In this document: positions 40,541 to 60,374 of the stretch, in pieces | How the letters are laid out: each line of letters begins with the position of its first letter | Position numbering within the stretch: position 1 is the stretch's first letter | Notes under the pieces: generated by a model | The model's input: only the letters and a program-made list of their open reading frames with translations | What the model was told of the DNA's origin: nothing | The model's database searches: none | Source: Pseudomonadales bacterium | GTDB lineage: Bacteria; Pseudomonadota; Gammaproteobacteria; Pseudomonadales; JANQJO01 | Assembly (NCBI GenBank): GCA_028281605.1 | Contig: JANQJO010000079.1 | Location: forward strand, 39,256 to 103,255 | Direction: 5' to 3' | Length of the DNA: 64,000 nucleotides | Program-made: the position numbers and the translations under genes

Positions 40541-40582
40541 GTGTTAGTGTTAATAGTCAATTTTTAAAGAAAGTGTTGAATG

Positions 40583-40608
40583 TGCCGGTGCCAGTGTTGG
40601 CACCGGTA
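40583..40608 (-). other. GC-rich stem-loop between prsT and prsK
   Basis: CCGGTGCC (40585-40592) and GGCACCGG (40599-40606) are exact complements around a 6-nt loop, with two more flanking pairs. No clear U-tract follows on the minus strand. Confidence 0.5.
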
Positions 40609-40626
40609 AAGTAAGTTCTATCCTTT

Positions 40627-42993: not shown

Positions 42994-43134
42994 ATTGATT
43001 ATTCCGTAATCAGCATTGGTTGATTTATGCTTTGTAAATAGGGGTTTTATGATAACTAGTTAAAGGTTAGAAGTCACGTTGTAAGAATTAAGTCAATGGG
43101 TATGCTTTCAGGCTATAACAATGGCGTGTCATGG

Positions 43135-43143
43135 TGATATAAT
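43135..43143 (+). promoter_or_regulatory. Extended -10 promoter element (TGATATAAT) upstream of the BNR-protein gene
   Basis: Exact TGnTATAAT about 75 nt upstream of ATG 43219. Confidence 0.35.
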
Positions 43144-43218
43144 CGGCACTTTTTTTGTAGTTTACTGTTAAGAAGTTGAGAAGAGGAGTTTGCAATCGTA
43201 TTAAGTACGCAAAAATTT

Positions 43219-44424
43219 ATGAGTCTTAGGGCTTTAGGGTGTTTGTGGGTCATAGCCAGTGTGTTTGGGTTTGTGGATGTGGCGCATTGGTCGACTGAGG
43301 GTCTTTATGCGAGTTATCAGGTTACGTCTTTGCCTTCATCAAAACAGAGATCGGGTTTGCATAAGGAGGAGCCAAAGTATTTAGAGCGTATGATAGGCGC
43401 GGCTGGTCAGCCACTGGTGCACAGTGCTACTTTGGCCTGGATGTCTGCTACGAAAGAGCTATATGCTTATTGGTATGGGGGCAGCCGTGAAGGCGCCAGA
43501 GACGTTGCTATTTATACAGCAAAGTATCGGTTGGGTGAGGATCAGTGGAGTGAACCTAAGCAACTGTTGACAACTCAAAGAGTACAAGTCCAACTACAAC
43601 GTTTTATTAAAAAGTTGGGTAACCCTGTGGCGTTTACTGATGCTGAGCAGAGGATTTGGTTGTTTTTTGTCACTGTTTCTGTAGGGGGATGGGCCGGCAG
43701 TGCTGTTAATTATATGGTCTCGGATGATGGAGGCCAAAGCTTTGGCCCCATTCAGCGCTTGGTAACGACACCTTTTTTAAATATCAGCACGCTGGTTAAA
43801 AACCATCCTGTTATGGTGCAAAATGGCAATATAGTATTGCCTGTGTATCATGAGTTTATGGGTAAGTTTGCTGAATTGTTGCTGCTAAGTGATCAGGGCC
43901 AAGTGCTGACTAAGAAGCGCCTTACTTGGGGGAGAGATGCTTTGCAGCCTGTATTGTTGCCTTTGAATGAGCAAGAGGCGGTGGTGTATATGCGTTTTGC
44001 CGGTATTGAGCCTAACAGAATATTGTATGTTGCCACACAAGATGCGGGTGTTCATTTTTCTAAGCCAACTAAGCTTGCATTACCTAATCCGAATGCGGCC
44101 GTAGCAGCAGTGCGGTTGAACAGTCAAGAGTTGTTGATGGTTTACAATAATTCTCTGACTCATCGTAATGTTTTATCTTTGTCTTTTGCTGAGGGTTCTG
44201 CATTGGCTGAGGGCTCTCTTGAACGGTGGTTTTGGTTGTACGACTTTGAGCGTACGGAAAATGAGCTTGATCGTTTTTCTTATCCAGTTTTGTTGCAAGA
44301 CGATGAGGGCTCGATACACGTGATGTACTCTTATAATCGAAGAAACATTAAGCATGTAGAGTTTAATGAGGCTTGGTTACGGCAACAGGTCGTACGCCAT
44401 CAGTTACAGAGAGAGGAACGATAA
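43219..44424 (+). CDS. BNR/Asp-box repeat protein (sialidase-like beta-propeller)
   Basis: Signal-like N-terminus, with Asp-boxes VSDDGGQSFG and TQDAGVHFS. 401 aa. Confidence 0.6.
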   Translation: MSLRALGCLWVIASVFGFVDVAHWSTEGLYASYQVTSLPSSKQRSGLHKEEPKYLERMIGAAGQPLVHSATLAWMSATKELYAYWYGGSREGARDVAIYTAKYRLGEDQWSEPKQLLTTQRVQVQLQRFIKKLGNPVAFTDAEQRIWLFFVTVSVGGWAGSAVNYMVSDDGGQSFGPIQRLVTTPFLNISTLVKNHPVMVQNGNIVLPVYHEFMGKFAELLLLSDQGQVLTKKRLTWGRDALQPVLLPLNEQEAVVYMRFAGIEPNRILYVATQDAGVHFSKPTKLALPNPNAAVAAVRLNSQELLMVYNNSLTHRNVLSLSFAEGSALAEGSLERWFWLYDFERTENELDRFSYPVLLQDDEGSIHVMYSYNRRNIKHVEFNEAWLRQQVVRHQLQREER

Positions 44425-44429
44425 ATTTC

Positions 44430-45029
44430 GTGGATATACTTTGGTATGTGTATGTGACTTGGTTGCCTGTATTGTTTGCTTGTTGTTGGGCATTATTGTG
44501 TTCTATTAGCCAGTTGAACCTTCGTTTGTGCTTGTGCATGGTTTGTATGGGGCTTGTTTTTACAGTATCGATTGCGAATGCCAGTGTATTTTATCATTTG
44601 CGGGGATTGTTGAGTGAGCCGAGTTGGGCTCTGGTGGGTTTCAGCTTATTGTATTTAGCAAGGGAGTTAAGTAACCGGCAGCTGCAAAAGCGAACCGTTT
44701 ACACTTTTTCTTGGGCTGTTGTTTTTTTTGGCTATAGTTTATACCCTTTGGCTTTGGGGTTAACTTACATGGATTCCTATGCCTTGGGGTATGAGCCATG
44801 GGTGGCTTTGGTATTGGCAGGGGGGTTGTTGCTTGCCTGGTGGTTTACCAGAACGCTTATTGTGCCACTTTGGCTGACAACGGCTTTATTTGCTTATGCT
44901 TACCAATTCGGTGAGAGTCCAAATCTGTGGGATTATATTATTGACCCTTTTGCTTTTATTGTAGCCCATATGTATATTGCTCGAAGTTTATGGGCTCACT
45001 ATAAAAAACGGCGTGAGGTGATTGAGTAG
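44430..45029 (+). CDS. Polytopic membrane protein, unknown function
   Basis: Five or six hydrophobic segments. The start is uncertain: GTG 44430 lies just after the upstream stop, while the ORF track begins at 44373. Confidence 0.5.
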   Translation: MDILWYVYVTWLPVLFACCWALLCSISQLNLRLCLCMVCMGLVFTVSIANASVFYHLRGLLSEPSWALVGFSLLYLARELSNRQLQKRTVYTFSWAVVFFGYSLYPLALGLTYMDSYALGYEPWVALVLAGGLLLAWWFTRTLIVPLWLTTALFAYAYQFGESPNLWDYIIDPFAFIVAHMYIARSLWAHYKKRREVIE

Positions 45030-45703
45030 TGACTGTATTAGAGAAAGTTGTGTTGATTTATGGTGGTATTTTTTTGGGTTTGGGGGTTATATTGTCTGTA
45101 GTTAATCAACCTTATTTTGATACTATTTATACATTAGAAGATGGTGTTTTAGAGTGGTTGACGGTGATGGCGTTGGCTACGGTGTTTGCTGTTACCGTGA
45201 AACGCTTGTATGTTGGTTTTGTTCGTTTTAGTGGGATGCAGAGAGTTGTGTTGGTTTTAATTGCTTTGTTGTTTTGTTTTGGTGCAGGGGAAGAAATCTC
45301 TTGGGGGCAACGTTTATTTCAAATTGAAAGTGGTGCATTTTTCCAAAAATATAATTCGCAGGGTGAAACAAATTTGCATAATTTGATGCTGGGAGAGACC
45401 AAGGTGAACAAGTTGGTTTTTGGTAAAATGTTGGCTTTGATTTTTTCATTTTATTTGTTGGTTTTGACGCCGCTTTATCACAGGTCCGACCGTGTTCGCC
45501 TGTTTATTGATGCGTGGGCCATTCCTATTCCACAGCGTTACCAATGGATAGGGTACTTAGTAGTGGTGTTGACAGTTGAGGGGGTCGTTAATGTGTTATC
45601 AGAAACATCTAAGCGAGGTGAGTTGACAGAATTTTCAGCAGCTTTGATTGTTATGTTGAATCTGCTTTATCCGTATAATTCCAAAGCGCTAGAGCCTGTT
45701 TGA
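45029..45703 (+). CDS. Polytopic membrane protein with GEEISWGQR motif, unknown function
   Basis: The GTG start overlaps the upstream TAG by 1 nt (TAGTG). Several TM segments. Confidence 0.55.
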   Translation: MTVLEKVVLIYGGIFLGLGVILSVVNQPYFDTIYTLEDGVLEWLTVMALATVFAVTVKRLYVGFVRFSGMQRVVLVLIALLFCFGAGEEISWGQRLFQIESGAFFQKYNSQGETNLHNLMLGETKVNKLVFGKMLALIFSFYLLVLTPLYHRSDRVRLFIDAWAIPIPQRYQWIGYLVVVLTVEGVVNVLSETSKRGELTEFSAALIVMLNLLYPYNSKALEPV

Positions 45704-45871
45704 TTTTTCTATTTATCGAAGATCATGGCATGTAACAGATACACGACTTTCTGTATATAATCTTTATTTGTTTTTCATGTGCAGATAGATAATTGTCATG
45801 CGAATACAAGTGATATTTTGGACAATATTATTTTGGCGCTTGATGCATAGGAATTTATTTCGTGTTCGTTC

Positions 45872-47167
45872 CTAAGTGAAATTTAAGTCGTTGTATGAAT
45901 CTAAGTTCAATCGTTTGTGCGCCAATAGCATGCTCCATATACTGTGTATAATAATTCCTGCACAAAAGATTAGAGTGGCAATTTCAACAGTACCTATTTT
46001 TATAATCGTTAGATTTAAGAAGATACTGAGTAAACTTGTCCATAAAGTAATATGAAGCATGTCTTTTTCATGACCTGTCATTAATAGTAAAGAGCTAAAC
46101 TGGCTGTTCCAAATTAAAACAAATAAAGCAGCACAAAAAAATTGTAGACATACTTTTGCTTGTAAAAATTCAGGGCCAAATAAGCTGAGGGTTATTTCTG
46201 GGAATAAAAAAATCAAAGTTGAAATAGGTAGTAAAAAAGCACGTAATAAAAAACTGTTTTTTTTTACTTGTTTATACAGTGTTTGATATTTTTTAGCATT
46301 AAAAGATTCAGCATATTGTCTGTAGCTAATGCAGTTCATAGAAGAAATAAAGATAGTAATAAAACCAAAAATAGTGCTGCAAGCACCGATTAAACCGATA
46401 GCATGATTGTCTAAATATAATACCCATAATAGGCTCGATGATACAAAGCCAAGATAAGACAAAAGGTCAATTAACATGTGCCGAAAAGACCTTGGTATTA
46501 ATTGTTTAGGCATGAGTGTTTTTGCGGGAATTTTAGATTGAATTTTTTTAACGATCAGTATTGTCGATAATAGAGCCAATAGAGTTATAGATCCGGTAAA
46601 ATATAATAAGAGAGTATAAAAGTCTAATGTTTGCTGAACTTGGAGGTGTGTTAAGCATAGGCATAAAGTAGCTAAAGGGATAAGAAGCGTTTCCAGTAAA
46701 AAAGCGCTGTATACAGCATTAAGTGCTTTGAGTACACAGTAATTGAAAAGATGTAGAAGATTTGCGAGGAAAATCCAAGCAATTAACTTAATAATTTTTT
46801 TTTCATTAGGGTGTTTAAAAAATAATTGCGTTAAAGGGTCTGTGAATAAAAAGAAAAAAGTGGAGATAATTGCGCCAAGTATAAAGATTATTTTTAAACA
46901 CCGTGTGTATAGCTGAAAAACAAAGGTTAAGTCAGTCTCTGCAAAAGGTTTGCTTGCATAAAAAATGAACGAAGTGCCAAGGCCGAATCGGCCTAACATA
47001 CCAAAAAAAGCCAATAAGCTGATTGTGATGTTGAAACTACCTATACCCCAAGGTCCAAATTGGCGACTGATCAGTGCTGCTAACACGATGCTGATGCTTT
47101 TACCAATAAGGCCTAATGTTGATAAATACAGCAATTGTTTGGTTGGGGCGGTGTCATCATTTGGCAT
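45872..47167 (-). CDS. MOP-superfamily (Wzx-like) polysaccharide/oligosaccharide flippase
   Basis: 431 aa with about 12 hydrophobic segments. N-terminal LSTLGLIGKSISIVLAALISRQFG is typical of polysaccharide biosynthesis (Polysacc_synt) proteins. Confidence 0.6.
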   Translation of the reverse strand: MPNDDTAPTKQLLYLSTLGLIGKSISIVLAALISRQFGPWGIGSFNITISLLAFFGMLGRFGLGTSFIFYASKPFAETDLTFVFQLYTRCLKIIFILGAIISTFFFLFTDPLTQLFFKHPNEKKIIKLIAWIFLANLLHLFNYCVLKALNAVYSAFLLETLLIPLATLCLCLTHLQVQQTLDFYTLLLYFTGSITLLALLSTILIVKKIQSKIPAKTLMPKQLIPRSFRHMLIDLLSYLGFVSSSLLWVLYLDNHAIGLIGACSTIFGFITIFISSMNCISYRQYAESFNAKKYQTLYKQVKKNSFLLRAFLLPISTLIFLFPEITLSLFGPEFLQAKVCLQFFCAALFVLIWNSQFSSLLLMTGHEKDMLHITLWTSLLSIFLNLTIIKIGTVEIATLIFCAGIIIHSIWSMLLAHKRLNLDSYNDLNFT

Positions 47168-49093: not shown

Positions 49094-50257
49094 GTGTTGC
49101 GAAAAACCTGTAGTCCTCGTCTGAACTGGAAAGCATTGGCCGAAGAATATGGCTTTAGATTCCATACGCTCTATGGACATCCTTATTGGGATGAAAGCGC
49201 GTATTATCAATTCAGTTTGAAACAAATTGAAAAAGATTTGGAAGCGCCAACCGAAGAGCTTCATCAAATGTGTTTGTTTGTTGTCGAAAAAGTTGTAAAT
49301 GATGAAGAGTTGCTCTGCAAATTCAAAATCCCTGCAGAGCACTGGGACAATACCAGAGCCTCTTGGCTCGCTAAAGAGCCTAGCCTTTATTCCAGGTTAG
49401 ATCTTTGTTATAGCGGCATTGGAGTTGCTAAGCTCTATGAAAATAATGCTGATACACCCACCAGTTTGTACGAAACAGGTTTTTGGCAATGGTTATGGTT
49501 AGAGAATAAAATTGAGCAAAGTGAATTCCCTAAAAAAACAGATCAATTTAATTCATTACAAGAAAAATTGATTGCACGACTACAGTGTATTGCTGAAAAG
49601 CATCCGCAAGAAATTTTATATTTTAGCTGCTGTAAAAACTCTGAAGAAGATCGTGGCACTGTACAATATCTCATGGACTGCGCTTGCGAGGCAGAGATTC
49701 CGTCACGATTCATATATGTCGAAGACATCGGGCATGGTGAAGGTGATGTGTTTACCGATTTAAACAATCAAGCGATCACTTGGATTTTTAAACTCTATCC
49801 TTGGGAATTCATGCTGAGGGAAGACTATGGACGTTACCTCGATATTAATAATGTTAGCTGGCTGGAGCCTCTTTGGAAAGGGGTACTGTCCAATAAAGCT
49901 TTATTAGCCATGCTGTGGCATCTTTTTCCTAATCACCCTAATCTTTTACCTGCTTATTTTGAAGAAGATTTGTGTAAGTCAAGTCTAAAAAACTATGTCA
50001 AAAAACCTCTTTACTCACGAGAAGGTGCTAACATCACGTTCTACAAAGATGGTAAAGCACACAAAAATGTCCAAGGCCCTTATGGAGAAGAGGGCTATAT
50101 TTATCAAGCTTATCACCCTCTGCCTCAGTTTGGACCTAACCATACTTTAGTTGGTTCTTGGCTTGTTAATGATAAAGCCGCAGGCATTTCAATACGCGAA
50201 GATTATAATCCGATTACTCAAGACTTATCGCGCTATTTGCCTCATATTATTTTATAA
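49094..50257 (+). CDS. yjfC: Glutathionylspermidine synthase-like ATP-grasp protein (YjfC-like)
   Basis: 387 aa. N-terminal MLRK...YGFRFHT and C-terminal KKPLYSREGANI are typical of the GSP-synthase preATP-grasp family. Confidence 0.8.
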   Translation: MLRKTCSPRLNWKALAEEYGFRFHTLYGHPYWDESAYYQFSLKQIEKDLEAPTEELHQMCLFVVEKVVNDEELLCKFKIPAEHWDNTRASWLAKEPSLYSRLDLCYSGIGVAKLYENNADTPTSLYETGFWQWLWLENKIEQSEFPKKTDQFNSLQEKLIARLQCIAEKHPQEILYFSCCKNSEEDRGTVQYLMDCACEAEIPSRFIYVEDIGHGEGDVFTDLNNQAITWIFKLYPWEFMLREDYGRYLDINNVSWLEPLWKGVLSNKALLAMLWHLFPNHPNLLPAYFEEDLCKSSLKNYVKKPLYSREGANITFYKDGKAHKNVQGPYGEEGYIYQAYHPLPQFGPNHTLVGSWLVNDKAAGISIREDYNPITQDLSRYLPHIIL

Positions 50258-51117
50258 TTTTGACATATTTTAACGGCTTTATTGATAAATCCTACAGCTA
50301 AGCCTATTAAAGCTAATATCAAAGCAGAAGGCTCAGATATCGATGAAGGTTTAATCACTGATCGATTTGTACCACCAGGTGTCAACATGAAATTGGGGTC
50401 AAGTGAAACCGTTACACCTAAGTGATTAGAAATGTTATTAGGATTAGCAGTATAAGGTCCTTGACCTGCACCGTGTACATCCATTACATAGGCATTCCCA
50501 TTCATTCCAGACACATATGCATCGGGAATAAAGCCATTAGGATCAATATCCACTCCGCCCAGCTGAGACCCATACGCAAGATCATTTGCACCGCCATCAA
50601 CCCATGCAATAGTTTCTATCACTGACGTCCATGGTAGTAATGCATCAAGTACTCCATCATTGTTTGTATCAAGATCATCGCCTAAAGCACCAAAAAAATC
50701 TTTTACTAAAAGAAAAGTAATGGTTCCGTTTTCAAGGTCATTCGTAAAAAGAGTTTGGGGTTCAGGCTCTACAATCACTGTTGTAGCGGGTTCGGGTATA
50801 GGGTTTAAAACCGCAGTCGTATCACGTAGCAACAATAATCCATTGTCACCCAAGGTATCAGTGGAATCAAAAGTGTGATATCGGTCAATTTTACCCGCAC
50901 TATTACCATCACCTTCTATTAATACGATAGAAAGGCCATTAAGAGATTCACCAGCAGCACCAGAGAGTTCAATAAATTCTTTGCCGTTATCAGCACCTGG
51001 AGCATTAATTAATATTTCATTAATACTCACTGCGCGAGCATTAGAGACAAATATTATCACATATAATAATGTTAATATTTTTGATTTTTTTATAAAAATA
51101 TCTTTGCGAAATTTCAT
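50242..51117 (-). CDS. Secreted lamin-tail-domain (LTD) protein with PEP-CTERM-like (SEP) C-terminal sorting signal
   Basis: Signal peptide ...SNARA. LTD motif INEILINAPGADNGKEFIELSG. C-terminal ISEPSALILALIGLAVGFINKAVK has a xEP motif, a TM helix and a basic tail. Confidence 0.65.
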   Translation of the reverse strand: MKFRKDIFIKKSKILTLLYVIIFVSNARAVSINEILINAPGADNGKEFIELSGAAGESLNGLSIVLIEGDGNSAGKIDRYHTFDSTDTLGDNGLLLLRDTTAVLNPIPEPATTVIVEPEPQTLFTNDLENGTITFLLVKDFFGALGDDLDTNNDGVLDALLPWTSVIETIAWVDGGANDLAYGSQLGGVDIDPNGFIPDAYVSGMNGNAYVMDVHGAGQGPYTANPNNISNHLGVTVSLDPNFMLTPGGTNRSVIKPSSISEPSALILALIGLAVGFINKAVKICQNYKII

Positions 51118-51975: not shown

Positions 51976-53445
51976 ATGGCCAAACGGTATGATACGCTCA
52001 TGAAATTTCTTTTTAATCTTAGGGTGAAAACTTTTAATTTGCTTTTGTTTGCCTGCGTTTTGGATTTGAATGCTTGTGCGATAAAATCAAACGGCCCATT
52101 AATTGTTCAGCAGGTGAAAAGTGAGCAAGAATTATCTTTGCCTGCTGTGAAGCAAATGCAGGAGTATTTAAAAAATCAGCCTTTTGAAACCGAAGCAGCA
52201 CAGCGATGGTGGTTATCGTTTGCAGATCCCGTTCTGCAGCAACTGGTTGATGTGGCTCTTGAGCAAGCTTATCAAGTTCGTACGGCCTTAGCAAATTTAG
52301 AGGCAGCGAAAAGTCAGTTACGTGCTTCAAATGCGGATTTGTTGCCTTCGGTTGAGTTGGGTATAGATGCTTCGGTGACGGACTTTGATGTTGAGCGTAA
52401 TGATTTTGCTGGGGATACCTTAAGCCACAGGTTTGGTGTGAGTGCACTGATGCAATGGCAAGTTGATGTTTCAGGACGAGCACGTTCGCTGGTTGCCTCG
52501 TCCCGTGCTGATGTGGTTTCGACGGCTGCTTTATTAAGAGATGTGCAACGTTTGGTGGTGCAGCAGGTTGTTGGTACTTATGTTGAATTGCGTGCAGCTC
52601 AGCAGCGCTTACTCCTGGCTCAACAAAGTGTGCAGCGTCGAGAACAGCATGTAGAAAGGATAGAGCGCTTGTTGCAAAAAGGTTACGCTACGGCATTGGA
52701 TAAGAGTAGAACTGATAATCAACTGTATGAGTCAAAAGCAGACGCTTACGTGCAGGAAATTGAAATGGTGCGTTTGACTAATGCGCTTGCGTTGTTGCTG
52801 GGTCTCAACTTGATTGAAACGAGAGCATTAGTGCATGAGCCTAGACAGCTGCCGGTTTTGGTGGATGATGTGCCTTTGCCGAACGTATCGCAATTAATTC
52901 ATCACCGTCCTGATATTCGAGCAGTAGAATTGCGATTGCTTGCAGTTGCTTTTGAACTAAATGCAGCGAAAGCTTCATTGTACCCATCTTTTAGCGTAGG
53001 TGTTAATGTGTTTAAGCAAGGAGAGCGATTGGGTAAATGGCCTGATTTAAGTGATGTTGTTGGGCGTGTATTTTCTAATTTAGCGGTCCCTATATTGGGT
53101 CGAGGGCGTTTGCTGGCAGCTGTTGATTCACAGTCTGCTCGATTGAAAGAAGCTCATATTAGTTATGAGGAGACGATTGCTAGGGCTCTAGCAGAGCTGG
53201 ATTCATCTGTAGTGTCTGTGGTGAAAACACGACAAATTTATGAGCAAAGAAAGTTGGCTGCTGAAAGTGCGAAGGTGGCTGCTGAGTCTTCTTATGCTTT
53301 ATTTCAGTCAGGTGAAATTGATTATACTTCAGTGATTGTGGCTGAACAAACGCGAACTTTTGCTGAGCAAGCAGCTATAGTAGCCCATAGGACAGCTGTT
53401 GTAACCTATGTTGGATATTTGTCAGCTGTTGTGCCAGTTTGGTAG
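51976..53445 (+). CDS. Outer-membrane efflux protein (TolC/NodT family lipoprotein)
   Basis: Lipobox LNAC. Two repeated helical halves with the typical LLPSVELG... and LYPSFSVG... segments. 489 aa. Confidence 0.8.
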   Translation: MAKRYDTLMKFLFNLRVKTFNLLLFACVLDLNACAIKSNGPLIVQQVKSEQELSLPAVKQMQEYLKNQPFETEAAQRWWLSFADPVLQQLVDVALEQAYQVRTALANLEAAKSQLRASNADLLPSVELGIDASVTDFDVERNDFAGDTLSHRFGVSALMQWQVDVSGRARSLVASSRADVVSTAALLRDVQRLVVQQVVGTYVELRAAQQRLLLAQQSVQRREQHVERIERLLQKGYATALDKSRTDNQLYESKADAYVQEIEMVRLTNALALLLGLNLIETRALVHEPRQLPVLVDDVPLPNVSQLIHHRPDIRAVELRLLAVAFELNAAKASLYPSFSVGVNVFKQGERLGKWPDLSDVVGRVFSNLAVPILGRGRLLAAVDSQSARLKEAHISYEETIARALAELDSSVVSVVKTRQIYEQRKLAAESAKVAAESSYALFQSGEIDYTSVIVAEQTRTFAEQAAIVAHRTAVVTYVGYLSAVVPVW

Positions 53446-53469: not shown

Positions 53470-54756
53470 CTATTGATATGGTTTAAATCGTCCCTGTGAT
53501 ACTCTTGGGTCCCAACGTGGTACAGCTAGGTGTTTACTTTGATTGGGCTTCAATTGCTGTTTAGAATTTTGTATGTCTTTTGCTTTGTTTTGCTGTAAGT
53601 TTTTGTACCTTTGTTCGAGTTTTTGCTCTGCCCTGATAGAGTTGTACTTTAATTCAGGTTCGATAAATTCCTCAGGCAGTTCTGTAAAACGAGGATAGGT
53701 GACAGAGTCGAAATCCCAAGCATACTTATTGCCATACATGATTTCTTTGTAGAGTTTGAAATCAATCGATTGAGTGCCGTTATTAAAACTATTTAAGCTG
53801 TATAGATTCCGATAATACTCTAACGCTAAATAAGTTTTCCGATCCAATATTCCGTGAGTGGCTCCATGATAGTAATTAAATTGTTTTAACCGCATTTGTA
53901 TACTCTTGATGAGTTTATGGCGATCTTTGCTGTAGCGAACGTATTCTTCTCTAATTTTGGCTAAGACTTCAGGATTTTCATAATCTAGAGGTAGGCATGT
54001 CATATAAGGTATGTCTAATAATTTTCCTATTAATTCTATCAGTCCAAGGTCTACTAAATTACGAATGGCTTGGCCAAGGCCATCACGCCGATCTAGACCA
54101 AAATCAAAGAAAGTACCCACTGAATTAATGCGGCCTCCTAAATCTGTACCGGCACCTTTGTCATAAACGGCTAATACATTATTCGATGTGACGCCTGGTA
54201 TCATTTGTAAAGAACTGACCTGCCCGACATTTAAATCAAGTGCTGCATATGAAATGCCTTGTCCGCCTGTGAATGCTGCATTCCAATCTTCGCTGTTTAA
54301 GGCTGTGCCGAAGCGTGAGGATATGACATTTTTATCAAGCTGAGTGATACCGCCTCTGATAAAATAATCGGGCGTAATGAAATTTTCTTTTGCATCGTGT
54401 GCTTTGTGTAATAGGATAATATCTCTTAAATCAGTGCCATAAGAAACAAAACGAATACGCTGGCTTTTGCTGCCTATTTTAGACATGGATGTGATGAGCA
54501 TTTCTTTGCCACCAACTAATTGTTCTCCTTCTCCTGTCATATTTGGAATGTCTTGTGCTGTAATAGTAATGGTTGGAATATCGTATTGTATTAATAGATT
54601 ATCCATACAGGCTAAAGAGTTTGAGAAATTTGTTACGTTAACCACAGGATTTTCTATAGGGTTTCTGTTGAATGTTTTATTTCCCAATAGAAAATTAGCA
54701 CAGCCGCTGAGCTGGCTTGTGATGAACAGTGTAATTAATGCTACTTTTTTTGTCAT
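53470..54756 (-). CDS. CsgG/HfaB-like outer-membrane secretion-channel lipoprotein with C-terminal extension
   Basis: ATG 54756 gives MTKKVALITLFITSQLSGC (lipobox). ITAQDIPNMTGEG, YFIRGGITQLDKNV and GQAIRNLVDLGLIELIGKL align by eye with CsgG VSVYNIQDETGQF, IMVEGSIIGYESNV and MSAIETGVIFLINDGI. An extra region of about 150 aa includes FNYYHGATHGILDRKTYLALEYY (like PG-binding domain 1). Confidence 0.65.
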   Translation of the reverse strand: MTKKVALITLFITSQLSGCANFLLGNKTFNRNPIENPVVNVTNFSNSLACMDNLLIQYDIPTITITAQDIPNMTGEGEQLVGGKEMLITSMSKIGSKSQRIRFVSYGTDLRDIILLHKAHDAKENFITPDYFIRGGITQLDKNVISSRFGTALNSEDWNAAFTGGQGISYAALDLNVGQVSSLQMIPGVTSNNVLAVYDKGAGTDLGGRINSVGTFFDFGLDRRDGLGQAIRNLVDLGLIELIGKLLDIPYMTCLPLDYENPEVLAKIREEYVRYSKDRHKLIKSIQMRLKQFNYYHGATHGILDRKTYLALEYYRNLYSLNSFNNGTQSIDFKLYKEIMYGNKYAWDFDSVTYPRFTELPEEFIEPELKYNSIRAEQKLEQRYKNLQQNKAKDIQNSKQQLKPNQSKHLAVPRWDPRVSQGRFKPYQ

Positions 54757-54763
54757 TTTATAT

Positions 54764-55114
54764 TTAACTTCCGCAGTCGCTTGCATTGACAACATCCCCG
54801 TCAATAAATACTGTAGTTTCAACGTCATTAAATTGATCGCTACCGAACTGCCCTGGAACAACGTTACCTATGTTTATGGAGCAATTGTTAAATACCTGCG
54901 GCATGCCGAGATCGAAAGGTGGTTTTTCGCTTTTATCCGCCGTTTCTGCGGCATATCGGTTTTTTTGTGCTTGTAATTTATATAAAGGTGTTCGGGCGTG
55001 TATAGGTATAAAGTGGTTAAGCCCAGAAAATGCTTGGCTTTGAATTTCACCAAAGTTGATATTAGGGAGAGTTGCTAATATCAATAGAAATTTTGGATGA
55101 AACTTTAAAAACAT
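54764..55114 (-). CDS. Small secreted protein C (paralogue set, C-terminal Cys pair)
   Basis: Signal-like MFLKFHPKFLLILATLPNINFG. NNCSINIGNVVPG...SDCGS. The stop lies 7 nt before the CsgG-like start. Confidence 0.5.
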   Translation of the reverse strand: MFLKFHPKFLLILATLPNINFGEIQSQAFSGLNHFIPIHARTPLYKLQAQKNRYAAETADKSEKPPFDLGMPQVFNNCSINIGNVVPGQFGSDQFNDVETTVFIDGDVVNASDCGS

Positions 55115-55130
55115 TTTTTGAACCCTATAT

Positions 55131-55469
55131 CTATTGTGTTGGATTGCATGCTGTGCTGCCTACTACAGATCCAATGATTATTTGACTGCAGCTGTTATCT
55201 GCATCAGCAATAGCCGATAGATTACCTGTTCCAACCAGTACTTCAAAACTGTTTGCTTCCCCTTCTAGAAATGAACCAACAATTACTTGTGAAACACCAC
55301 TGTCAGCTGAAGAAATGGTTGAGACGCTTTCAACAGTGACATTGATGGCAACTCTCCCATTGATTGAAGGTGCTTCCGCTATGCTGGTAAGATTGATGCT
55401 AGTCAAGTAACACAAGCTGAACAACTTTAAGCATTGCTTTAGCTTTTTTTTAGTGGTTTGTACGGTCAT
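55131..55469 (-). CDS. Small secreted Ser/Gly/Val/Ile-rich protein B (imperfect repeats, C-terminal Cys pair)
   Basis: Signal-like N-terminus ending SIAEA. Repeats are DSGVSQVIVGSF / SFEVLVGTG / NSCSQIIIGSVVGSTAC. Confidence 0.55.
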   Translation of the reverse strand: MTVQTTKKKLKQCLKLFSLCYLTSINLTSIAEAPSINGRVAINVTVESVSTISSADSGVSQVIVGSFLEGEANSFEVLVGTGNLSAIADADNSCSQIIIGSVVGSTACNPTQ

Positions 55470-55490
55470 GTTCTAAGGGTTCGTCAGTTT

Positions 55491-55856
55491 TTATTGTTCG
55501 TCGTAAGTGCAAGTGCTTGCACCGATTGACCCAACAGATGTTTTAACGCACAAAGTACCCTGCCAAGAAAGACCTGCGTTGACAATAGATATTCCCCCTA
55601 AGAGGCCGTCAATTAAAATTTGGTTGGTGAGACTTCCAGAAATTACAGAGTTTCCATGTACAGTACCAACACTAACTTCCATTTCAACGTCACCACCTTT
55701 CAGGCCGCCAACGCTAAGACCGGCATTTAAAATAGCGCCTCTTAAGGCGATTTCGTTGACAACATCTCCGCCAATATTAGCTATAGGGGCATCTGCATAA
55801 ATGAACTGTGTTGTGCTTAGATAAAGTGCGATTGCAGTTAATGTTTTCTTAATCAT
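55491..55856 (-). CDS. Small secreted Gly/Ser/Val/Ile-rich protein A (imperfect repeats, C-terminal Cys pair)
   Basis: AAGGAA Shine-Dalgarno and signal peptide ...QFIYA/DAP. Repeats are ILNAGLSVGG / IVNAGLSWQG and VSVGTV / TSVGSI, ending LCVKTSVGSIGASTC. Confidence 0.6.
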   Translation of the reverse strand: MIKKTLTAIALYLSTTQFIYADAPIANIGGDVVNEIALRGAILNAGLSVGGLKGGDVEMEVSVGTVHGNSVISGSLTNQILIDGLLGGISIVNAGLSWQGTLCVKTSVGSIGASTCTYDEQ

Positions 55857-56058
55857 GACATGTTCCTTTGCGATTTGTTTTTTTGATTTATTTATAATTT
55901 TTAGTTAGTTTTTTTATGACGCTTTTCTTTTGTAATGAAATTATTTTTTCTTATGTAGTATTTTTGATGGGTCCAGGTTAACATAAATTAAAACAATATT
56001 CATATAATTTTACAATTGTGGCATATTTTATAAATTGATTAATTAATATTTTTGGAGG

Positions 56059-56751
56059 GTGTCTGTGTACCAGGTTCAAAAAATTGCTATCTTTTTGTTT
56101 TTTTTGCTGTGCTGTTTTTTATCGTCTTGCCAGATTCAATATGCTGATTCTTATAATGGCGAATACGACAGTAGAAAAGATTTTGCTAGTGAGGGTTTGG
56201 TCACTTCTATTTACCATGTTTTAGCAGTGGGTAAGTTAGATAGGCCTTTGTCTAAGAGTAAGCTTCCCAAGTATACTGATAATAAAAGATGTTCCGAAAT
56301 TGAAAGTGTTAATTGGGACTTGCTTGTTAAAATAGAACAAGACTTGCGTAGAGATTTTGCTGGAGATTGGATTGATGTACAGAGAAGAAGGGATACTTTG
56401 TTAGTTCATATGCCCGGAAGAAATTATTATGAAATTGGCCATGAGCATGTGAACCCTGATTTTTATCCCGTTATGGATCGTTTAATAGCAAGATTGAAAC
56501 AGTATAGATATGTTAGAGTCGAATTTATTGGACATACAGATTCTTGGGATACGAAAGAGTATAACCAAGATCTATCCAAGCATCGAGCGAACAATATGGA
56601 GCGTTATTTTAATAGGTACAGTATCTCTGGTTCAGCTACTGTTTCTAGTGGAAAAGGGGAAACAGACTTTTTGGTTTCTAATGCAACCTCATTGGGTCGT
56701 TCTCTTAATCGAAGAGTGACATTGTTAATTTGTACCACAGATTATGTATGA
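56059..56751 (+). CDS. OmpA-family (peptidoglycan-associating) lipoprotein
   Basis: Lipobox LSSC. OmpA_C-like FIGHTDSWDTKEYNQDLSKHRANNMERYF...LNRRVTLLI. Confidence 0.75.
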   Translation: MSVYQVQKIAIFLFFLLCCFLSSCQIQYADSYNGEYDSRKDFASEGLVTSIYHVLAVGKLDRPLSKSKLPKYTDNKRCSEIESVNWDLLVKIEQDLRRDFAGDWIDVQRRRDTLLVHMPGRNYYEIGHEHVNPDFYPVMDRLIARLKQYRYVRVEFIGHTDSWDTKEYNQDLSKHRANNMERYFNRYSISGSATVSSGKGETDFLVSNATSLGRSLNRRVTLLICTTDYV

Positions 56752-56762
56752 AATGTAAGACC

Positions 56763-57635
56763 CTAGCGTTTGAATGAAGTCTTGTTGATTACTTTTTCTG
56801 CTGTTAGAAGTGGTTTGCTGGATAGATGCTTTTTCCAGGCAAATTCTACTATTAAGCTGTTGCGCTTGGTTTTTTTTCTGAAAGGTTTGATGCTTTTTAA
56901 GTTGACTCCAGCTCGCATGAGTGTGAGCGCTATGACTTTTACATCGTAAGGCTTTACTCGAGACCCTACGTTCAGCAAATTGGCTCTTGCTAGTTTTGGT
57001 CGTTCTAAGGGTGGGAGGAATTTTGATTGTCTCTCAAAGTTTAAGGAAATTTTTATGTCTTCTGAGTCTGTTTCTTCTTCGTCTTTTGCTTTGTTTTCCT
57101 CGTCATTGTTTTTGGAGTTTGAATCACCAAACATGTTATGATAATAGGCTTTGTAACCTCGGCTTTCTAATAGTTGAGTAATGAGCGGTTGATTAATTTC
57201 TTCTGGGATACGATACACTTCAACGTTGGTTTTAATTCTTACATCAATATTATTTTCTAACAGTTCAATTAATGCTTGGTTGGCTGTGCTCATGTGTTGA
57301 AATAAGGGGTTTTGTAAGCTCATGCCGGCATGTGTGGCTTTTTGGAGAAAATTGCTTGTGGCATCTGGGTCGACTTTCGCTTGCTGAGCAAGAAGCAGTT
57401 GTTTGGCAATATTTTGTTTGAGAAATAATTCTTGATCGTCTATTTTAGCAAGGAGCTGATTGTGGTCTTCTCCCAATTGATGGCTTAGGTACAGTTGGCT
57501 TACTAGGACGATTAAACTAATTAGGGCTATCGCAGTTGCACCGATCCAGCCTTTGGGGCTTTTGATATCTATGAATAGAAAGCCTAAGCAAATTAAAAAC
57601 AGTAATAATGGTAATATATACAATAATGAATTCAT
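56763..57635 (-). CDS. Hypothetical membrane protein (two N-terminal TM segments, acidic internal tract)
   Basis: 290-aa ORF with no family recognised. Confidence 0.45.
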   Translation of the reverse strand: MNSLLYILPLLLFLICLGFLFIDIKSPKGWIGATAIALISLIVLVSQLYLSHQLGEDHNQLLAKIDDQELFLKQNIAKQLLLAQQAKVDPDATSNFLQKATHAGMSLQNPLFQHMSTANQALIELLENNIDVRIKTNVEVYRIPEEINQPLITQLLESRGYKAYYHNMFGDSNSKNNDEENKAKDEEETDSEDIKISLNFERQSKFLPPLERPKLARANLLNVGSRVKPYDVKVIALTLMRAGVNLKSIKPFRKKTKRNSLIVEFAWKKHLSSKPLLTAEKVINKTSFKR

Positions 57636-57818: not shown

Positions 57819-58286
57819 TTAAAGCATTTGGCTTTGTAGGTAATTGTGTATCCCTACTTGATTGATCAGTTCAAGTTGTGTTTCTATCCAGTCGGTGTGC
57901 TCTTCTTCGCTCTTTAAGATATCTTGGAGTATATCTCGGCTGACATAGTCTTTAAGGGCTTCACATTCAGTAATAGCTGCTTGCAATGTTGGTATTGCTG
58001 CAAGTTCTAATTTTAAGTCACACTCAAGCATTTCTTTTGGATCTTCTCCGATCATTAGTTTGCCTAGATCTTGGAGATTGGGTAGACCCTCTAAAAATAG
58101 AACGCGTTCGGTTAATATGTCCGCATGCTTCATTTCATCAATGGATTCTTTGTGGACTAAATCAGCTAGGCGTTTAAAGCCCCAGTTTTGGAGCATTTTT
58201 GCGTGAAGAAAATATTGATTAATGGCTATTAGTTCGTTGCCAAGAACAGCATTGAGGTGTTTGATGATTTTTGCGTCACCCTTCAT
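57819..58286 (-). CDS. bfr: Bacterioferritin
   Basis: [31 protein letters not shown]... 155 aa with ferroxidase-centre E/H pattern. Confidence 0.95.
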
Positions 58287-58446
58287 TACCAGTATTCCTC
58301 GTTATAGGTTTTAAATAAACAAAAGTGTCTCCTATCTTAACTGGAAAATGCTTTTACGTCACTATAGTGTTATTTTCATATTCTAGGAGATCTGATTGGT
58401 ATTCGATTGTTTTGTTGTAATGATGAGTATGGTTTGAGTGAGTGTT

Positions 58447-58629
58447 TTATTTCTGCTTATTTTTATTTTCTAAGTCTCGTAAAAGTGATTTGGCGTGGGG
58501 GACACATTTGCCGCACTGTGTGGCAATGCCTAGTTTACAGCATAGATCTTTCATGGAGTGGCACTGCTTTTGTGATATAGCCTGTGCAATATGACGGTTA
58601 GTGATTGCTTTGCAAAGACATATATACAT
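58447..58629 (-). CDS. bfd: Bacterioferritin-associated ferredoxin (2Fe-2S)
   Basis: MYICLCKAITNRHI... and C-terminal CGKCV. The start was moved to the internal Met (58629), the typical Bfd N-terminus. Confidence 0.85.
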   Translation of the reverse strand: MYICLCKAITNRHIAQAISQKQCHSMKDLCCKLGIATQCGKCVPHAKSLLRDLENKNKQK

Positions 58630-58697
58630 AGTAAGATTGGTTCTCATAGTTGTGTTTTTGGATCGACAGATGTATTATCTTTAACCTTATACTGAAT

Positions 58698-59771: not shown

Positions 59772-60374
59772 ATGGCAGTATTGGTAGGGCAAGAAGCACC
59801 GGATTTTACAGTGCCTGCTGTTTTGGGTAATGGTGAGATTGTTGATGAGTTTACTTTATTTGAAGCACTTAAAGGAAAGTACGGTTTGCTTTTCTTTTAT
59901 CCCCTGGATTTTACCTTCGTGTGCCCGTCAGAACTGATCGCTTTAGACCATAGAATCGAAGCATTCCAGTCTAGAAATGTCGAAGTGATTGGGGTGTCTG
60001 TGGATTCTCATTTTACTCATAATGCTTGGCGTAATACTCCAGTTGAAAAGGGTGGTATTGGTCCTGTTAAATACACTTTGGCTGCTGATATTGACCATGG
60101 CATTTGTAAGGCTTATGACGTTGAATCTAGCGGTGGGGTGGCCTTTAGAGGTGTGTTTGTGATTGGCCAAGATAGAATTATATATTCTCAAACTGTCAAT
60201 CATTTACCTTTAGGTCGTAATATCGATGAGTTGATTAGAGTGGTTGATGCTTTGCAATTTCATGAGGAGCACGGTGAGGTATGTCCAGCTGGTTGGCAAA
60301 AGGGGGATGAGGGTATGCAGGCTTCTCCGACTGGTGTGGCCAGCTATCTTTCAGAAAATGCTGAAAATCTGTAG
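59772..60374 (+). CDS. ahpC: Typical 2-Cys peroxiredoxin (AhpC/Tsa family)
   Basis: Peroxidatic DFTFVCPSE and resolving EVCPAGW motifs. 200 aa. Confidence 0.9.
   Translation: MAVLVGQEAPDFTVPAVLGNGEIVDEFTLFEALKGKYGLLFFYPLDFTFVCPSELIALDHRIEAFQSRNVEVIGVSVDSHFTHNAWRNTPVEKGGIGPVKYTLAADIDHGICKAYDVESSGGVAFRGVFVIGQDRIIYSQTVNHLPLGRNIDELIRVVDALQFHEEHGEVCPAGWQKGDEGMQASPTGVASYLSENAENL

Follow-up and report, generated by a model that had tools for sequence, protein, structure and literature searches.

The window analysed here, a stretch of 64,000 nucleotides from a Pseudomonadales bacterium, contains four co-directional open reading frames on the minus strand, which we call genes A (55491..55856), B (55131..55469), C (54764..55114) and D (53470..54756) and which are separated by gaps of 21, 16 and 7 nt. 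A and B encode putative secreted precursors of 121 and 112 aa, C a putative secreted protein of 116 aa, and D a lipoprotein of 428 aa counted from its ATG. Besides the reading frames themselves, gene A is supported by homologues in syntenic position, B and C by family alignments, and D by profiles and a structural model. The start of D is ambiguous: the frame is open up to a TTG at 54861, and in the database copy of the protein (P0001, 438 aa) translation begins 10 codons before the ATG adopted in this analysis. The 7-nt spacing between C and D therefore depends on which start is chosen. All four proteins have signal-like N-termini, as assessed only from charge, hydrophobicity and aligned homologues. 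A preliminary description of this DNA had reported the same coordinates and gaps, signal-like N-termini in the small proteins, the motifs VSVGTV and TSVGSI in A, VIVGSF, VLVGTG and IIIGSV in B and INIGNV in C, and three C-terminal Cys strings with exactly two cysteines per mature part; the open reading frame list, the sequence and, for the N-termini, the homologues bear all of this out. The cysteine pairs are C103/C116 in A, C94/C108 in B and C78/C114 in C, and B has two further cysteines, both within its signal peptide. A and B are rich in G, S, V, I and L with just 10–11% charged residues; C has 17.6%.

Upstream of gene A lies an AT-rich region of 202 bp (55857..56058), which we presume to be the promoter region of both gene A and a divergent gene on the plus strand (56059..56751). 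Sigma-70-like hexamers occur on both strands of this region and are no commoner than in shuffled sequence, so the promoter assignment is a positional inference only. The divergent gene encodes an OmpA-family lipoprotein of 230 aa with the lipobox FLSS-C (Pfam OmpA, E 3.5e-11; NCBIfam YiaD-like, E 3e-29, below the cut-off). Its homologues take the same divergent position at loci L001, L003 and L006–L010, and an OmpA-family gene is present in 20 of 77 scored loci; the lipoprotein is often found with the operon and counts as a conserved companion. Next to it on the minus strand, a gene for a 290-aa protein with two N-terminal membrane segments (56763..57635) resembles L001:2209-3144 (BLASTP, 30% identity, E 2e-35). 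Since it holds the same relative position in the closest relatives only (L001, L002 and L007), a link to the cluster is possible but unproven.

Protein A begins with the putative signal peptide MIKKTLTAIALYLSTTQFIYA, followed by a mature part that starts with DAP and comprises two beta-rich repeats of ~44 aa and a terminal cysteine loop, C103-VKTSVGSIGAST-C116. B has two 35-aa repeats (period 35) with the pattern …N-A-x-x-x-S-x-A-Q-V-x-I-G-S… and the loop C94-SQIIIGSVVGSTA-C108, the cysteines of which are invariant in the B-family alignment (A5, C93 and C107). When the A family (alignments A4 and A6) was compared with the B family by hhalign, a probability of 98.3% was obtained (E 1.2e-14, 102 columns); judged by these profiles, A and B are true paralogues. 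Proteins of the A/B type have repeats of 31–44 aa, with periods of 31–39 aa across the family, a conserved mature N-terminus, P-x-I-x-G, and the terminal motif C-x-ΦG[NS]ΦG-x-C, which A and B have in common with large repeat proteins of related loci; together with the signal-like N-termini, the low charge and the all-beta model of A, these features resemble those of a cargo. The AlphaFold model of A (pLDDT 67.8) is all-beta, with six strands arranged as 2x3. It is moderately confident only, and Foldseek found no significant structural neighbour for it, the best match being FapC (E 0.76). Neither the three small proteins nor the large ones matched anything in Pfam, NCBIfam or PDB, nor did they match CsgA/B/E/F or curlin repeats. 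As had been noted from the sequence, the subunits lack the curlin repeat: the Curlin_rpt model (PF07012) matched neither A and B nor any of 41 A/B-family members. Comparison of the A and B families with CsgA by hhalign likewise showed no similarity, the aligned stretches lying in the signal-peptide region only.

The claim that all three small proteins are paralogous stands for A and B, but C has no significant similarity to either (hhalign), and from this comparison we regard it as a distinct family. Its conserved N-terminal segment includes a basic helix-like stretch, …LYKLQAQKNR…, and its C-terminal domain is bounded by the two cysteines, C-SINIGNV…VFIDGDVVNASD-C. In the C-family alignment (A2), G82 and G105 are invariant and C77, V101, N109 and C113 are conserved at 90% or more; the terminal domain follows the pattern C-x3-ΦG[NS]…ΦΦΦxG[DP]ΦΦN…C. 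The cysteine pair is 29–37 residues apart in 72 of 73 members, and in 69 of these 72 the last cysteine lies 0–2 residues from the C-terminus. The existence of a disulfide in A, B or C, and any role of it, is inferred. The C family belongs to no Pfam family, had no NCBIfam match at E ≤ 0.1 (47 members) and gave hhalign probabilities of 0.3% or less against CsgF, CsgE and CsgB, in keeping with the earlier remark that homologues of these three are missing.

D is classed as an outer-membrane lipoprotein on the basis of its lipobox, LSG-C19, and the Ala at position +2, both judged by eye; the lipobox cysteine is at least 90% conserved in alignment A1. Residues ~35–255 (53992..54654, minus strand) make up a CsgG/HfaB-like domain according to Foldseek, hhalign and the NCBIfam HfaB model, and the alignment with CsgG that the preliminary description had made by eye is thereby supported. 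When the AlphaFold model of D (pLDDT 76) was compared with the PDB by Foldseek, ranks 1–23 were all CsgG (best E 5.8e-7, probability 1.0; CsgG entries among the matches were 4uv2, 4uv3, 4q79, 6l7a, 6si7 and 7brm), with modest target-normalised TM-scores of 0.39–0.48. A 47-member D profile aligned with the single E. coli CsgG sequence over 200 columns (hhalign, probability 74%, E 2.8e-5; CsgG residues 48–274). The Pfam CsgG model (PF03783) did not match D at E ≤ 0.1 and matched only 4 of 47 relatives, weakly (best E 0.0022). NCBIfam HfaB (NF037935) matched D with 30.6 bits (E 1.8e-7), not reaching the equivalog cut-off of 300 bits; the match spans D residues 130–247 and model positions 143–261 of 264, and 26 of the 47 relatives match weakly. 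By model and profiles, D is distantly related to CsgG and HfaB at the fold level, and by HMM it is nearer to HfaB than to CsgG.

CsgG contributes two transmembrane beta-hairpins per protomer to an oligomeric barrel (nonameric, 36-strand), and its constriction loop carries stacked Tyr/Asn/Phe rings (Y51, N55 and F56 in the E. coli protein). Segments ~144–163 and ~195–221 of D are candidate amphipathic hairpins with alternating hydrophobicity and align with TM1 and TM2 of CsgG; the TM1-equivalent segment has a pLDDT below 50 in the monomer model. In the hhalign alignment, the D equivalent of the constriction loop, …DIPNMTGEGEQLVGG…, is ~10–12 residues shorter than that of CsgG, …DETGQFKPYPASNFSTAVPQS…, and the Tyr/Asn/Phe motif is missing from it. 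C50 and C254 are invariant in the D family. Lower in the Foldseek list are FlgT, PelC, LptE and GNA1162, non-channel lipoproteins with a CsgG-like fold. That this fold is common to such lipoproteins, and that the constriction loop of D is shortened and without the motif, both speak against a channel, the formation of which by D is an inference.

A PG_binding_1-like domain follows in D (residues ~262–341; 53734..53973, minus strand), helical with pLDDT above 90 and supported by profile matches. The domain is present in the family of D, with Pfam PG_binding_1 matching 27 of 47 relatives at E ≤ 0.01 (best 2.8e-14), and is sub-threshold in D of the window (E 0.058); the D profile also matches the PG-binding domain of SleB in the PDB. 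The tail (residues 342–428; 53473..53733, minus strand) is low-complexity, rich in K, Q, E and N and of low pLDDT, and varies in length and sequence among homologues (alignment A1). At the tail position, 22 of the 47 relatives carry DUF4384, which D of the window lacks.

The D family comprises 329 cluster representatives at E ≤ 1e-30. A C-family gene lies directly upstream of the D homologue in 60 of 69 informative loci and two genes further up in five more, making C the partner most tightly linked to D. A/B-type repeat proteins are encoded upstream of D in 61 of the 69 loci, and the full set, with C adjoining D and at least one A/B-type repeat protein, is found in 54, as it is in the window. 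The joint conservation of the small open reading frames with D, which the preliminary description had named as a check, was observed across alpha-, beta- and gammaproteobacteria, the carriers being mostly beta- and gammaproteobacteria; the arrangement is not due to chance, because it recurs in dozens of unrelated genomes. Downstream of D, 20 of 64 loci have a large A/B-type repeat protein of 250–1430 aa, which is absent from the operon of the window. The order AB-C-D-large is retained in L087 although D there has no PG-binding domain. At least one D homologue, on an Azospirillum plasmid (36% identity), lies beside unrelated DUF4399 proteins, without A, B or C.

The gene set was not found in the family libraries or the literature searched, and on that ground the operon probably encodes a surface fibre or anchor system not described before. 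We lean, with limited confidence, towards a conserved and uncharacterised envelope system centred on a protein that belongs distantly to the CsgG/HfaB superfamily of type VIII secretion, in which A and B form a fibre or adhesive layer. The earlier proposal of a distinct CsgG-dependent fibre or adhesin with novel subunits is supported in its fold, linkage and N-termini, while the passage of A and B through D and the fibre itself are inferences. CsgG secretes CsgA. In the system proposed here, A, B and C would be exported to the periplasm by Sec, and D would be lipidated, sorted to the outer membrane and assembled into a channel with two amphipathic beta-hairpins per subunit, as in CsgG. Two tethers would hold D to peptidoglycan, namely its PG-binding domain and the OmpA-like lipoprotein encoded nearby. 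After crossing D, the two-rung proteins A and B, built from the 31–44-residue beta repeat, would stack up outside the cell as a fibre of beta-solenoid type or as an adhesive layer; such polymerisation, and any amyloid character, is inferred. C would be the universal partner of D, with a C-terminal domain like a single rung shut by a disulfide; located at the channel, it could act as a coupling, nucleating or capping factor comparable to CsgF/CsgB in curli and possibly to HfaA in the holdfast anchor. Against secretion of a fibre, there is no experiment for any member of the family, and a CsgG-type constriction of ~1 nm would hardly admit a disulfide-closed loop if the cysteines are oxidised in the periplasm. 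The failure of D against the Pfam CsgG model, its low HfaB score, the modest TM-scores, the low pLDDT of the TM1-equivalent segment, the only moderately confident model of A without a significant neighbour and the Azospirillum homologue without A, B or C also weigh against it.

The alternative that survives best, which we nevertheless regard as unlikely, is a distant homologue of the Caulobacterales HfaA-HfaB-HfaD(-HfaE) system, in which secretion is the same and the polymer anchors an exopolysaccharide or other matrix to the outer membrane instead of forming a free fibre. HfaB is needed for surface localisation of HfaA and HfaD, a cysteine-containing cargo considered to assemble into stable multimers (bioRxiv 10.1101/2022.07.20.500906; PMC6707917), those of HfaA and HfaD being SDS-resistant (bioRxiv 10.1101/2022.07.20.500906). 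By HMM no curated family is nearer to D than HfaB, double tethering to peptidoglycan suits a load-bearing anchor, and the order and sizes of C, D and the large protein in many relatives mirror hfaA-hfaB-hfaD, as in L087 (121, 296 and 404 aa), following the same logic of small secreted protein, lipoprotein and larger surface protein. However, the HfaB score of D is ten-fold under the equivalog cut-off and only the C-terminal half of the HfaB model aligns; no relatives of HfaA or HfaD were detected through NCBIfam at E ≤ 0.1 among 47 C-family members or the large proteins tested, and the operon of the window has no large downstream protein. Most D proteins also carry PG-binding and/or DUF4384 domains, unlike Hfa, and carriers of the D system include beta- and gammaproteobacteria for which no holdfast is known. 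In the window, PEP-CTERM/exopolysaccharide-type regulators and a flippase-like gene lie 6–16 kb from the operon, which would suit a matrix anchor; the regulators were deemed unrelated when an association with holdfast polysaccharide (hfs) genes was considered. Because the genes flanking the operon differ between loci, no link to polysaccharide genes is conserved, and, with carriers mostly beta- and gammaproteobacteria, no association with hfs genes or a stalked lifestyle was found.

It is also conceivable, and in our view improbable, that D is a peptidoglycan-bound scaffold like LpoB, FlgT, PelC or GNA1162, and that A, B and C are disulfide-bonded partners, periplasmic or in the inner leaflet, which never cross the outer membrane. 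The non-channel lipoproteins in the Foldseek list, the truncated constriction loop together with a periplasmic PG-binding domain, and the conserved cysteine pairs, which suggest DsbA-dependent periplasmic folding, are all compatible with this. So is the CsgG-DUF4810-DUF799 (GNA1162-like) cluster of three lipoproteins, which is widespread and poorly understood and in Acinetobacter baumannii, for example in strain UPAB1, has no known secreted substrate (bioRxiv 10.1101/2021.05.19.444899). That cluster resembles the operon in having a CsgG/HfaB-family lipoprotein at its core outside curli, but its partners are two lipoproteins and those of D are secreted repeat proteins; no DUF4810 or DUF799 gene was found among the operon neighbours with Pfam and NCBIfam, and GNA1162 is merely a weak fold neighbour of D. 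Against the scaffold reading, nothing matches D structurally nearly as well as CsgG, and both hairpin segments are aligned and of alternating hydrophobicity. The partners are repeat proteins as long as 1430 aa, fibre- or adhesin-like in composition, which would be hard to fit in the periplasm. Among relatives that have small beta-rich proteins as operon partners, the only two that have been characterised, curli and Hfa, both serve secretion.

That this is merely a curli (csg) operon of the usual kind, with subunits drifted past recognition, is barely credible and largely refuted: a CsgG-like outer-membrane lipoprotein is encoded beside small Sec-dependent, low-charge, Gly/Ser/Asn/Gln-rich beta-repeat proteins, some relatives have repeats like Q-x-G-x-x-N-x-Q that look curlin-like by eye, and Acidovorax-type loci have a divergent gene for a LuxR-family response regulator, as csgD is, but the A and B families match neither Curlin_rpt nor, by hhalign, CsgA, D falls short of the Pfam CsgG model, the repeats are 31–44 aa instead of ~22 and end in a Cys loop, equivalents of CsgE, CsgF, CsgB and CsgC are missing from the operon, and D has domains foreign to CsgG (a PG-binding domain and, in many relatives, DUF4384). 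The Fap system of Pseudomonas (FapC fibre, FapF channel) likewise secretes proteins with imperfect repeats of ~30–40 aa; however, its channel is the trimeric beta-barrel FapF and not a CsgG-like lipoprotein, and it has no sequence or significant structural similarity to the operon proteins.

Returning to the proposed secretion of a surface fibre or adhesive layer, we tentatively suggest, as a hypothesis that may well not hold, that type-VIII-like secretion has a third branch next to curli and the holdfast anchor, represented by this operon and widespread in alpha-, beta- and gammaproteobacteria. This branch would have its own beta-solenoid cargo superfamily (2 to more than 30 rungs, 31–44-aa repeats and a terminal disulfide loop), an obligatory C, a disulfide-locked single rung templating or capping at the pore, and a peptidoglycan-bolted channel with a shortened constriction loop that might let partly folded, disulfide-containing substrates pass. 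Apart from CsgG-type channels, no Gram-negative route is known that exports subunits of amyloid-like fibres without drawing on energy at the outer membrane; curli and, less so, Hfa are the only such systems known to have been studied. A third lineage, whose cargo is built differently, whose accessory protein is another and whose channel is tethered to peptidoglycan, would widen the knowledge of type VIII secretion, and its study would reveal which features are general. It would also provide new determinants of biofilm formation or adhesion among environmental and symbiotic bacteria, self-assembling building blocks of a new beta-solenoid kind, and names for no fewer than three protein families that at present are annotated as hypothetical or just as 'DUF4384 domain-containing'. 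A CsgG-like pore with a different geometry is a further possible yield, which matters because CsgG serves as a sequencing nanopore. The D system is present in hundreds of protein clusters, including those of culturable Acidovorax, Comamonas, Polaromonas, Xenophilus, Vibrio and Buttiauxella.

The operon consists of four co-directional genes on the minus strand, as both the six-frame ORF list and the sequence bear out: gene A (window positions 55491-55856, 121 aa), gene B (55131-55469, 112 aa), gene C (54764-55114, 116 aa), and gene D (53470-54756, 428 aa counted from the ATG), separated by gaps of 21, 16, and 7 nt. Every motif quoted in the preliminary description, which had proposed a CsgG-dependent fibre or adhesin system here, was found in the sequence. 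The open frame of D continues upstream of its ATG, and the database copy of the protein, P0001 (438 aa), begins 10 codons earlier; thus, the 7-nt gap between C and D depends on the choice of start. The G+C content of the operon (0.38) equals that of the window, which contains no further members of the A/B or C families, and a promoter and terminator scan of the operon region gave nothing better than shuffled sequence. Several antisense ORFs of 50-170 aa lie over genes A-D, e.g. at 54467-54976 (+) and 55507-55800 (+); none is homologous to anything in the conserved families found, and all are most probably spurious.

Protein D begins with MTKKVALITLFITSQLSG-C19-A, a lipobox with a non-Asp residue at position +2, and is related at the fold level to CsgG, the curli secretion channel, and HfaB, the holdfast-anchor lipoprotein. 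A Pfam scan of D gave no CsgG match, a sub-threshold PG_binding_1 being the sole hit. PDB searches with the D sequence and profiles returned only PG-binding domains and no CsgG; therefore, the link to CsgG rests on the fold and on profile-sequence comparison. Both uphold the CsgG-like nature first proposed for D. The AlphaFold model of D, built from 26 homologues (pLDDT 76), matched CsgG structures at ranks 1-23 in a Foldseek search of the PDB (best E 5.8e-7, probability 1.0; target-normalised TM 0.39-0.48), followed at much weaker E values by lipoproteins of the same fold class, namely FlgT, XCC0632, PelC, GNA1162, and LptE. The 47-member D-family profile was aligned by hhalign with Escherichia coli CsgG, taken from NC_000913 and used as a single-sequence template, over 200 columns covering CsgG 48-274 (E 2.8e-5, probability 74%). 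In this alignment the two transmembrane hairpins of CsgG correspond to D residues ~144-163 and ~195-221, where alternating hydrophobicity is found family-wide, and the loop that in D corresponds to the CsgG constriction has ~10-12 fewer residues and no Tyr/Asn/Phe motif. The NCBIfam HfaB model matched D only weakly (E 1.8e-7, 30.6 bits against a cut-off of 300, residues 130-247); as judged by HMM, D is closer to HfaB than to CsgG.

C-terminal to the CsgG-like domain, a helical PG_binding_1 domain was confidently modelled by AlphaFold. This domain is a feature of the D family, reaching E<=0.01 in 27 of 47 relatives (best 2.8e-14), and remains sub-threshold in the D protein of the window. A variable tail follows, which is DUF4384 in 22 of the 47 relatives and not in the window protein. 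Residues C50 and C254 are invariant across the family, and a D profile search of 1.84 billion cluster representatives yielded 329 at E<=1e-30 and 1155 at E<=1e-10.

The small proteins have signal-like N-termini, as had been suggested: in A and B a basic and then hydrophobic stretch leads to A-x-A-like sites (…IYA|DAP and …AEA|PS), and the weaker site of C (…NFG|EIQ) is aligned with canonical sites of its homologues. Each mature protein also has exactly two Cys, as first read (A 103/116, B 94/108, C 78/114). The three had been described as paralogous, which holds for A and B but not for C. The A and B family alignments matched each other over 102 columns (hhalign probability 98.3%, E 1.2e-14), and on this comparison A and B are paralogues. 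Each comprises two copies of one repeat, with a unit of ~44 aa in A (Φ-x-Φ-x-G-x-Φ-Φ-N-A-G-…-x-Φ-S-V-G-[ST]-Φ, where Φ is a hydrophobic position) and of 35 aa in B (…N-A-x-x-x-S-x-A-Q-V-x-I-G-S-Φ), and in the second copy the two Cys bracket a ΦG[ST]ΦG motif. The AlphaFold model of A (46 sequences) is all-beta with 2x3 strands, at moderate confidence only (pLDDT 67.8), and had no significant Foldseek match; thus, a three-sided beta-solenoid is plausible for A, not demonstrated. The top matches, FapC, bactofilin, and HET-s, have a beta-solenoid or amyloid flavour that we do not count as evidence.

Protein C represents a separate family, with a conserved N-terminal part that includes a basic helix-like stretch and a C-terminal domain of the form C-x3-Φ-G-[NS]…Φ-Φ-Φ-x-G-[DP]-Φ-Φ-N-x(0-4)-C, ending <=2 residues from the C-terminus; its Cys pair is present in 72 of 73 members. 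Comparison of C with A and B by hhalign gave nothing significant (probability about 10%), only motif matches of 7-15 residues such as GDVVN with GAILN and C-SINIGN with C-SQIIIGS, which rules C out as a third paralogue. A reading of C as one A/B repeat rung in circularly permuted form is speculation. None of A, B, and C has a relative in Pfam, NCBIfam, or the PDB, and the same is true of 47 C-family members, 41 A/B-family members, and the large homologues tested, for which Pfam and NCBIfam returned nothing beyond sporadic chance matches.

The gene set is conserved as a unit. The A-B-C-D order is kept on contigs whose D homologues are 49-65% identical, usually together with a divergent OmpA-like lipoprotein gene. 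Scanning GTDB with a single genome per species turned up 155 D relatives; 80 loci were fetched, and iterated HMM searches of all their ORFs were combined with a position analysis. At the 69 loci with at least 1.2 kb upstream of D, a C-family gene lies immediately upstream on the same strand in 60 and two genes further up in 5 more, and at least one A/B-type protein is encoded upstream in 61; the small ORFs are thus conserved with D, as the preliminary description required, and C is its most constant partner. An A/B-type protein of at least 250 aa follows D at 20 of 64 loci. The OmpA-like lipoprotein is a conserved companion of the operon, an OmpA-family gene being present at 20 of 77 scored loci; the 290-aa membrane protein adjoining it is syntenic in the closest relatives only. 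Carriers among the fetched loci include gammaproteobacterial MAGs, Thiodiazotropha symbionts, Vibrio sp. HA2012, Buttiauxella izardii, Thiothrix, Lysobacteraceae, many Comamonadaceae (Acidovorax, Polaromonas, Comamonas, Xenophilus, Caenimonas), Rhodocyclaceae, and several alphaproteobacterial MAGs. Acidovorax-type loci additionally encode a divergent LuxR-type response regulator with a histidine kinase and a Sel1-repeat protein.

With D CsgG-like and the set conserved, a novel CsgG-dependent system is supported as the best hypothesis, although its function is entirely inferred. By analogy with what CsgG and HfaB are established to do (bioRxiv 10.1101/2022.07.20.500906; PMC6707917), we infer that D would oligomerise into an outer-membrane channel, which the PG-binding domain of D and the OmpA-like lipoprotein may tether to peptidoglycan. 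Through this channel A and B, and elsewhere also large repeat proteins, would reach the surface and build a beta-solenoid-type fibre or layer by stacking, and C may serve at the pore in coupling, nucleation, or capping. The Cys pairs could cap the last rung intramolecularly, make intersubunit cross-links, or be part of a recognition signal. Oxidation of these Cys before export would speak either for a pore wider than that of CsgG, in keeping with the shortened constriction loop of D, or against any export.

The most weighty alternative, an Hfa-like anchor for polysaccharide, shares this mechanism and differs in role. PEP-CTERM-type EPS regulators lie near the operon in the window; however, flanks are not conserved between loci. 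By Pfam, the gene content at 37083-47167 is of the kind usual in PEP-CTERM/exosortase-type exopolysaccharide loci: a sigma-54 response regulator (37083-38435, -), a histidine kinase (38432-40540, -), a 788-aa TPR protein (40627-42993, -), a BNR_2 protein (43219-44424, +), and a MatE/flippase-like protein (45872-47167, -). This stretch could be relevant to an anchor role, and it is not kept beside the operon in other genomes. Second in weight is a non-secretory periplasmic complex. Last comes a drifted curli operon, which is largely refuted, since curlin repeats, CsgE, CsgF, and CsgB are all absent, as first noted: hhalign comparisons of C with CsgE, CsgF, and CsgB and of A and B with CsgA were null, and no Pfam or NCBIfam family matched.

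In its working, the preferred CsgG-dependent system is most like curli and Hfa, but it does not satisfy the membership tests for either. D falls under the Pfam CsgG threshold and scores ten-fold below the HfaB cut-off, and relatives of HfaA and HfaD were not detected, though this is indirect, without direct sequence comparison. The system differs, too, from the CsgG-DUF4810-DUF799 cluster that has been studied in A. baumannii, and a full-text literature search found no description of the gene set. We therefore place it in the CsgG/HfaB superfamily, as a system that brings cargo and accessory families of its own and a putative PG-tethered channel. It is widely distributed, related loci encode large A/B-family repeat proteins, and the existence of culturable carriers makes the hypothesis directly testable.

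The A/B family is highly diverse. Certain members have Q-x-G-x-x-N-x-Q repeats that look curlin-like by eye, and the period holds at 31-39 aa in these too. Most of the inspected small members have the terminal motif C-x-ΦG[NS]ΦG-x-C, and most large proteins have it at their C-terminus or close to it. At one locus, a short D homologue without the PG-binding domain (P0027, 296 aa) stands in the order AB(119)-C(121)-D(296)-large(404), which resembles hfaA-hfaB-hfaD. Large proteins of a first class, encoded downstream of D (L004:7331-9340, L023:7451-9562, L020, L021, L026, L027, L032, L036), carry a four-Cys motif, …AACVxxIGCLSELxGKKNCxMIGNxGLxxxCG, followed by an E/K/A/G/V/I-rich segment of 45-120 residues, helical by eye (…EAIKELEKLGYEI…HFF), that might be a membrane or anchor module; those of a second class (L019, L033, L042, L047, L087) stop exactly at the last Cys. 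Two extra A-type paralogues, one with a 50-residue Gly/Ala-rich C-terminal extension beyond the Cys loop, lie on the opposite strand past the OmpA-like gene at L006:2598-3924 (-).

On plasmids, D homologues were found only in Azospirillum (n=2), in a different gene context. That of Azospirillum ramasamyi (L086, NZ_CP029832.1, 347719-360678) is 36% identical and named in RefSeq only 'DUF4384 domain-containing protein'. Its neighbours are two DUF4399 proteins, another DUF4384 protein, an OmpA-family protein, and an ECF sigma/anti-sigma pair, whereas A, B, and C are all missing; D-family lipoproteins thus occur in another gene setting too. In one close relative (L003:7293-13092), a two-partner secretion pair, an ShlB-type transporter and a TPS-domain exoprotein, directly follows A-B-C-D, placing a second adhesin-type secretion system beside the operon.

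In the window, the gene for a NodT-family outer-membrane efflux lipoprotein (51976-53445, +; TIGR01845 E 4e-58, just under the cut-off) converges on D with stop codons 24 bp apart and no recognisable terminator in this gap. Beyond it, a 291-aa secreted protein (50242-51117, -) without Pfam or NCBIfam match has, by eye, a lamin-tail-like N-terminal part (INEILINAPGADNGKEFIELSG) and a C-terminus (…SEPSALILALIGLAVGFINKAVK) resembling a PEP-CTERM sorting signal. On the other side, by eye only, lie a bacterioferritin-like 155-aa ORF with a Cys-rich 66-aa Bfd-like ORF (57819-58647, -) and a peroxiredoxin-like protein (59772-60374). The bacterioferritin-like, peroxiredoxin-like, and NodT proteins are singletons at 90% identity among ~15 billion proteins, indicating an organism without close sequenced relatives.
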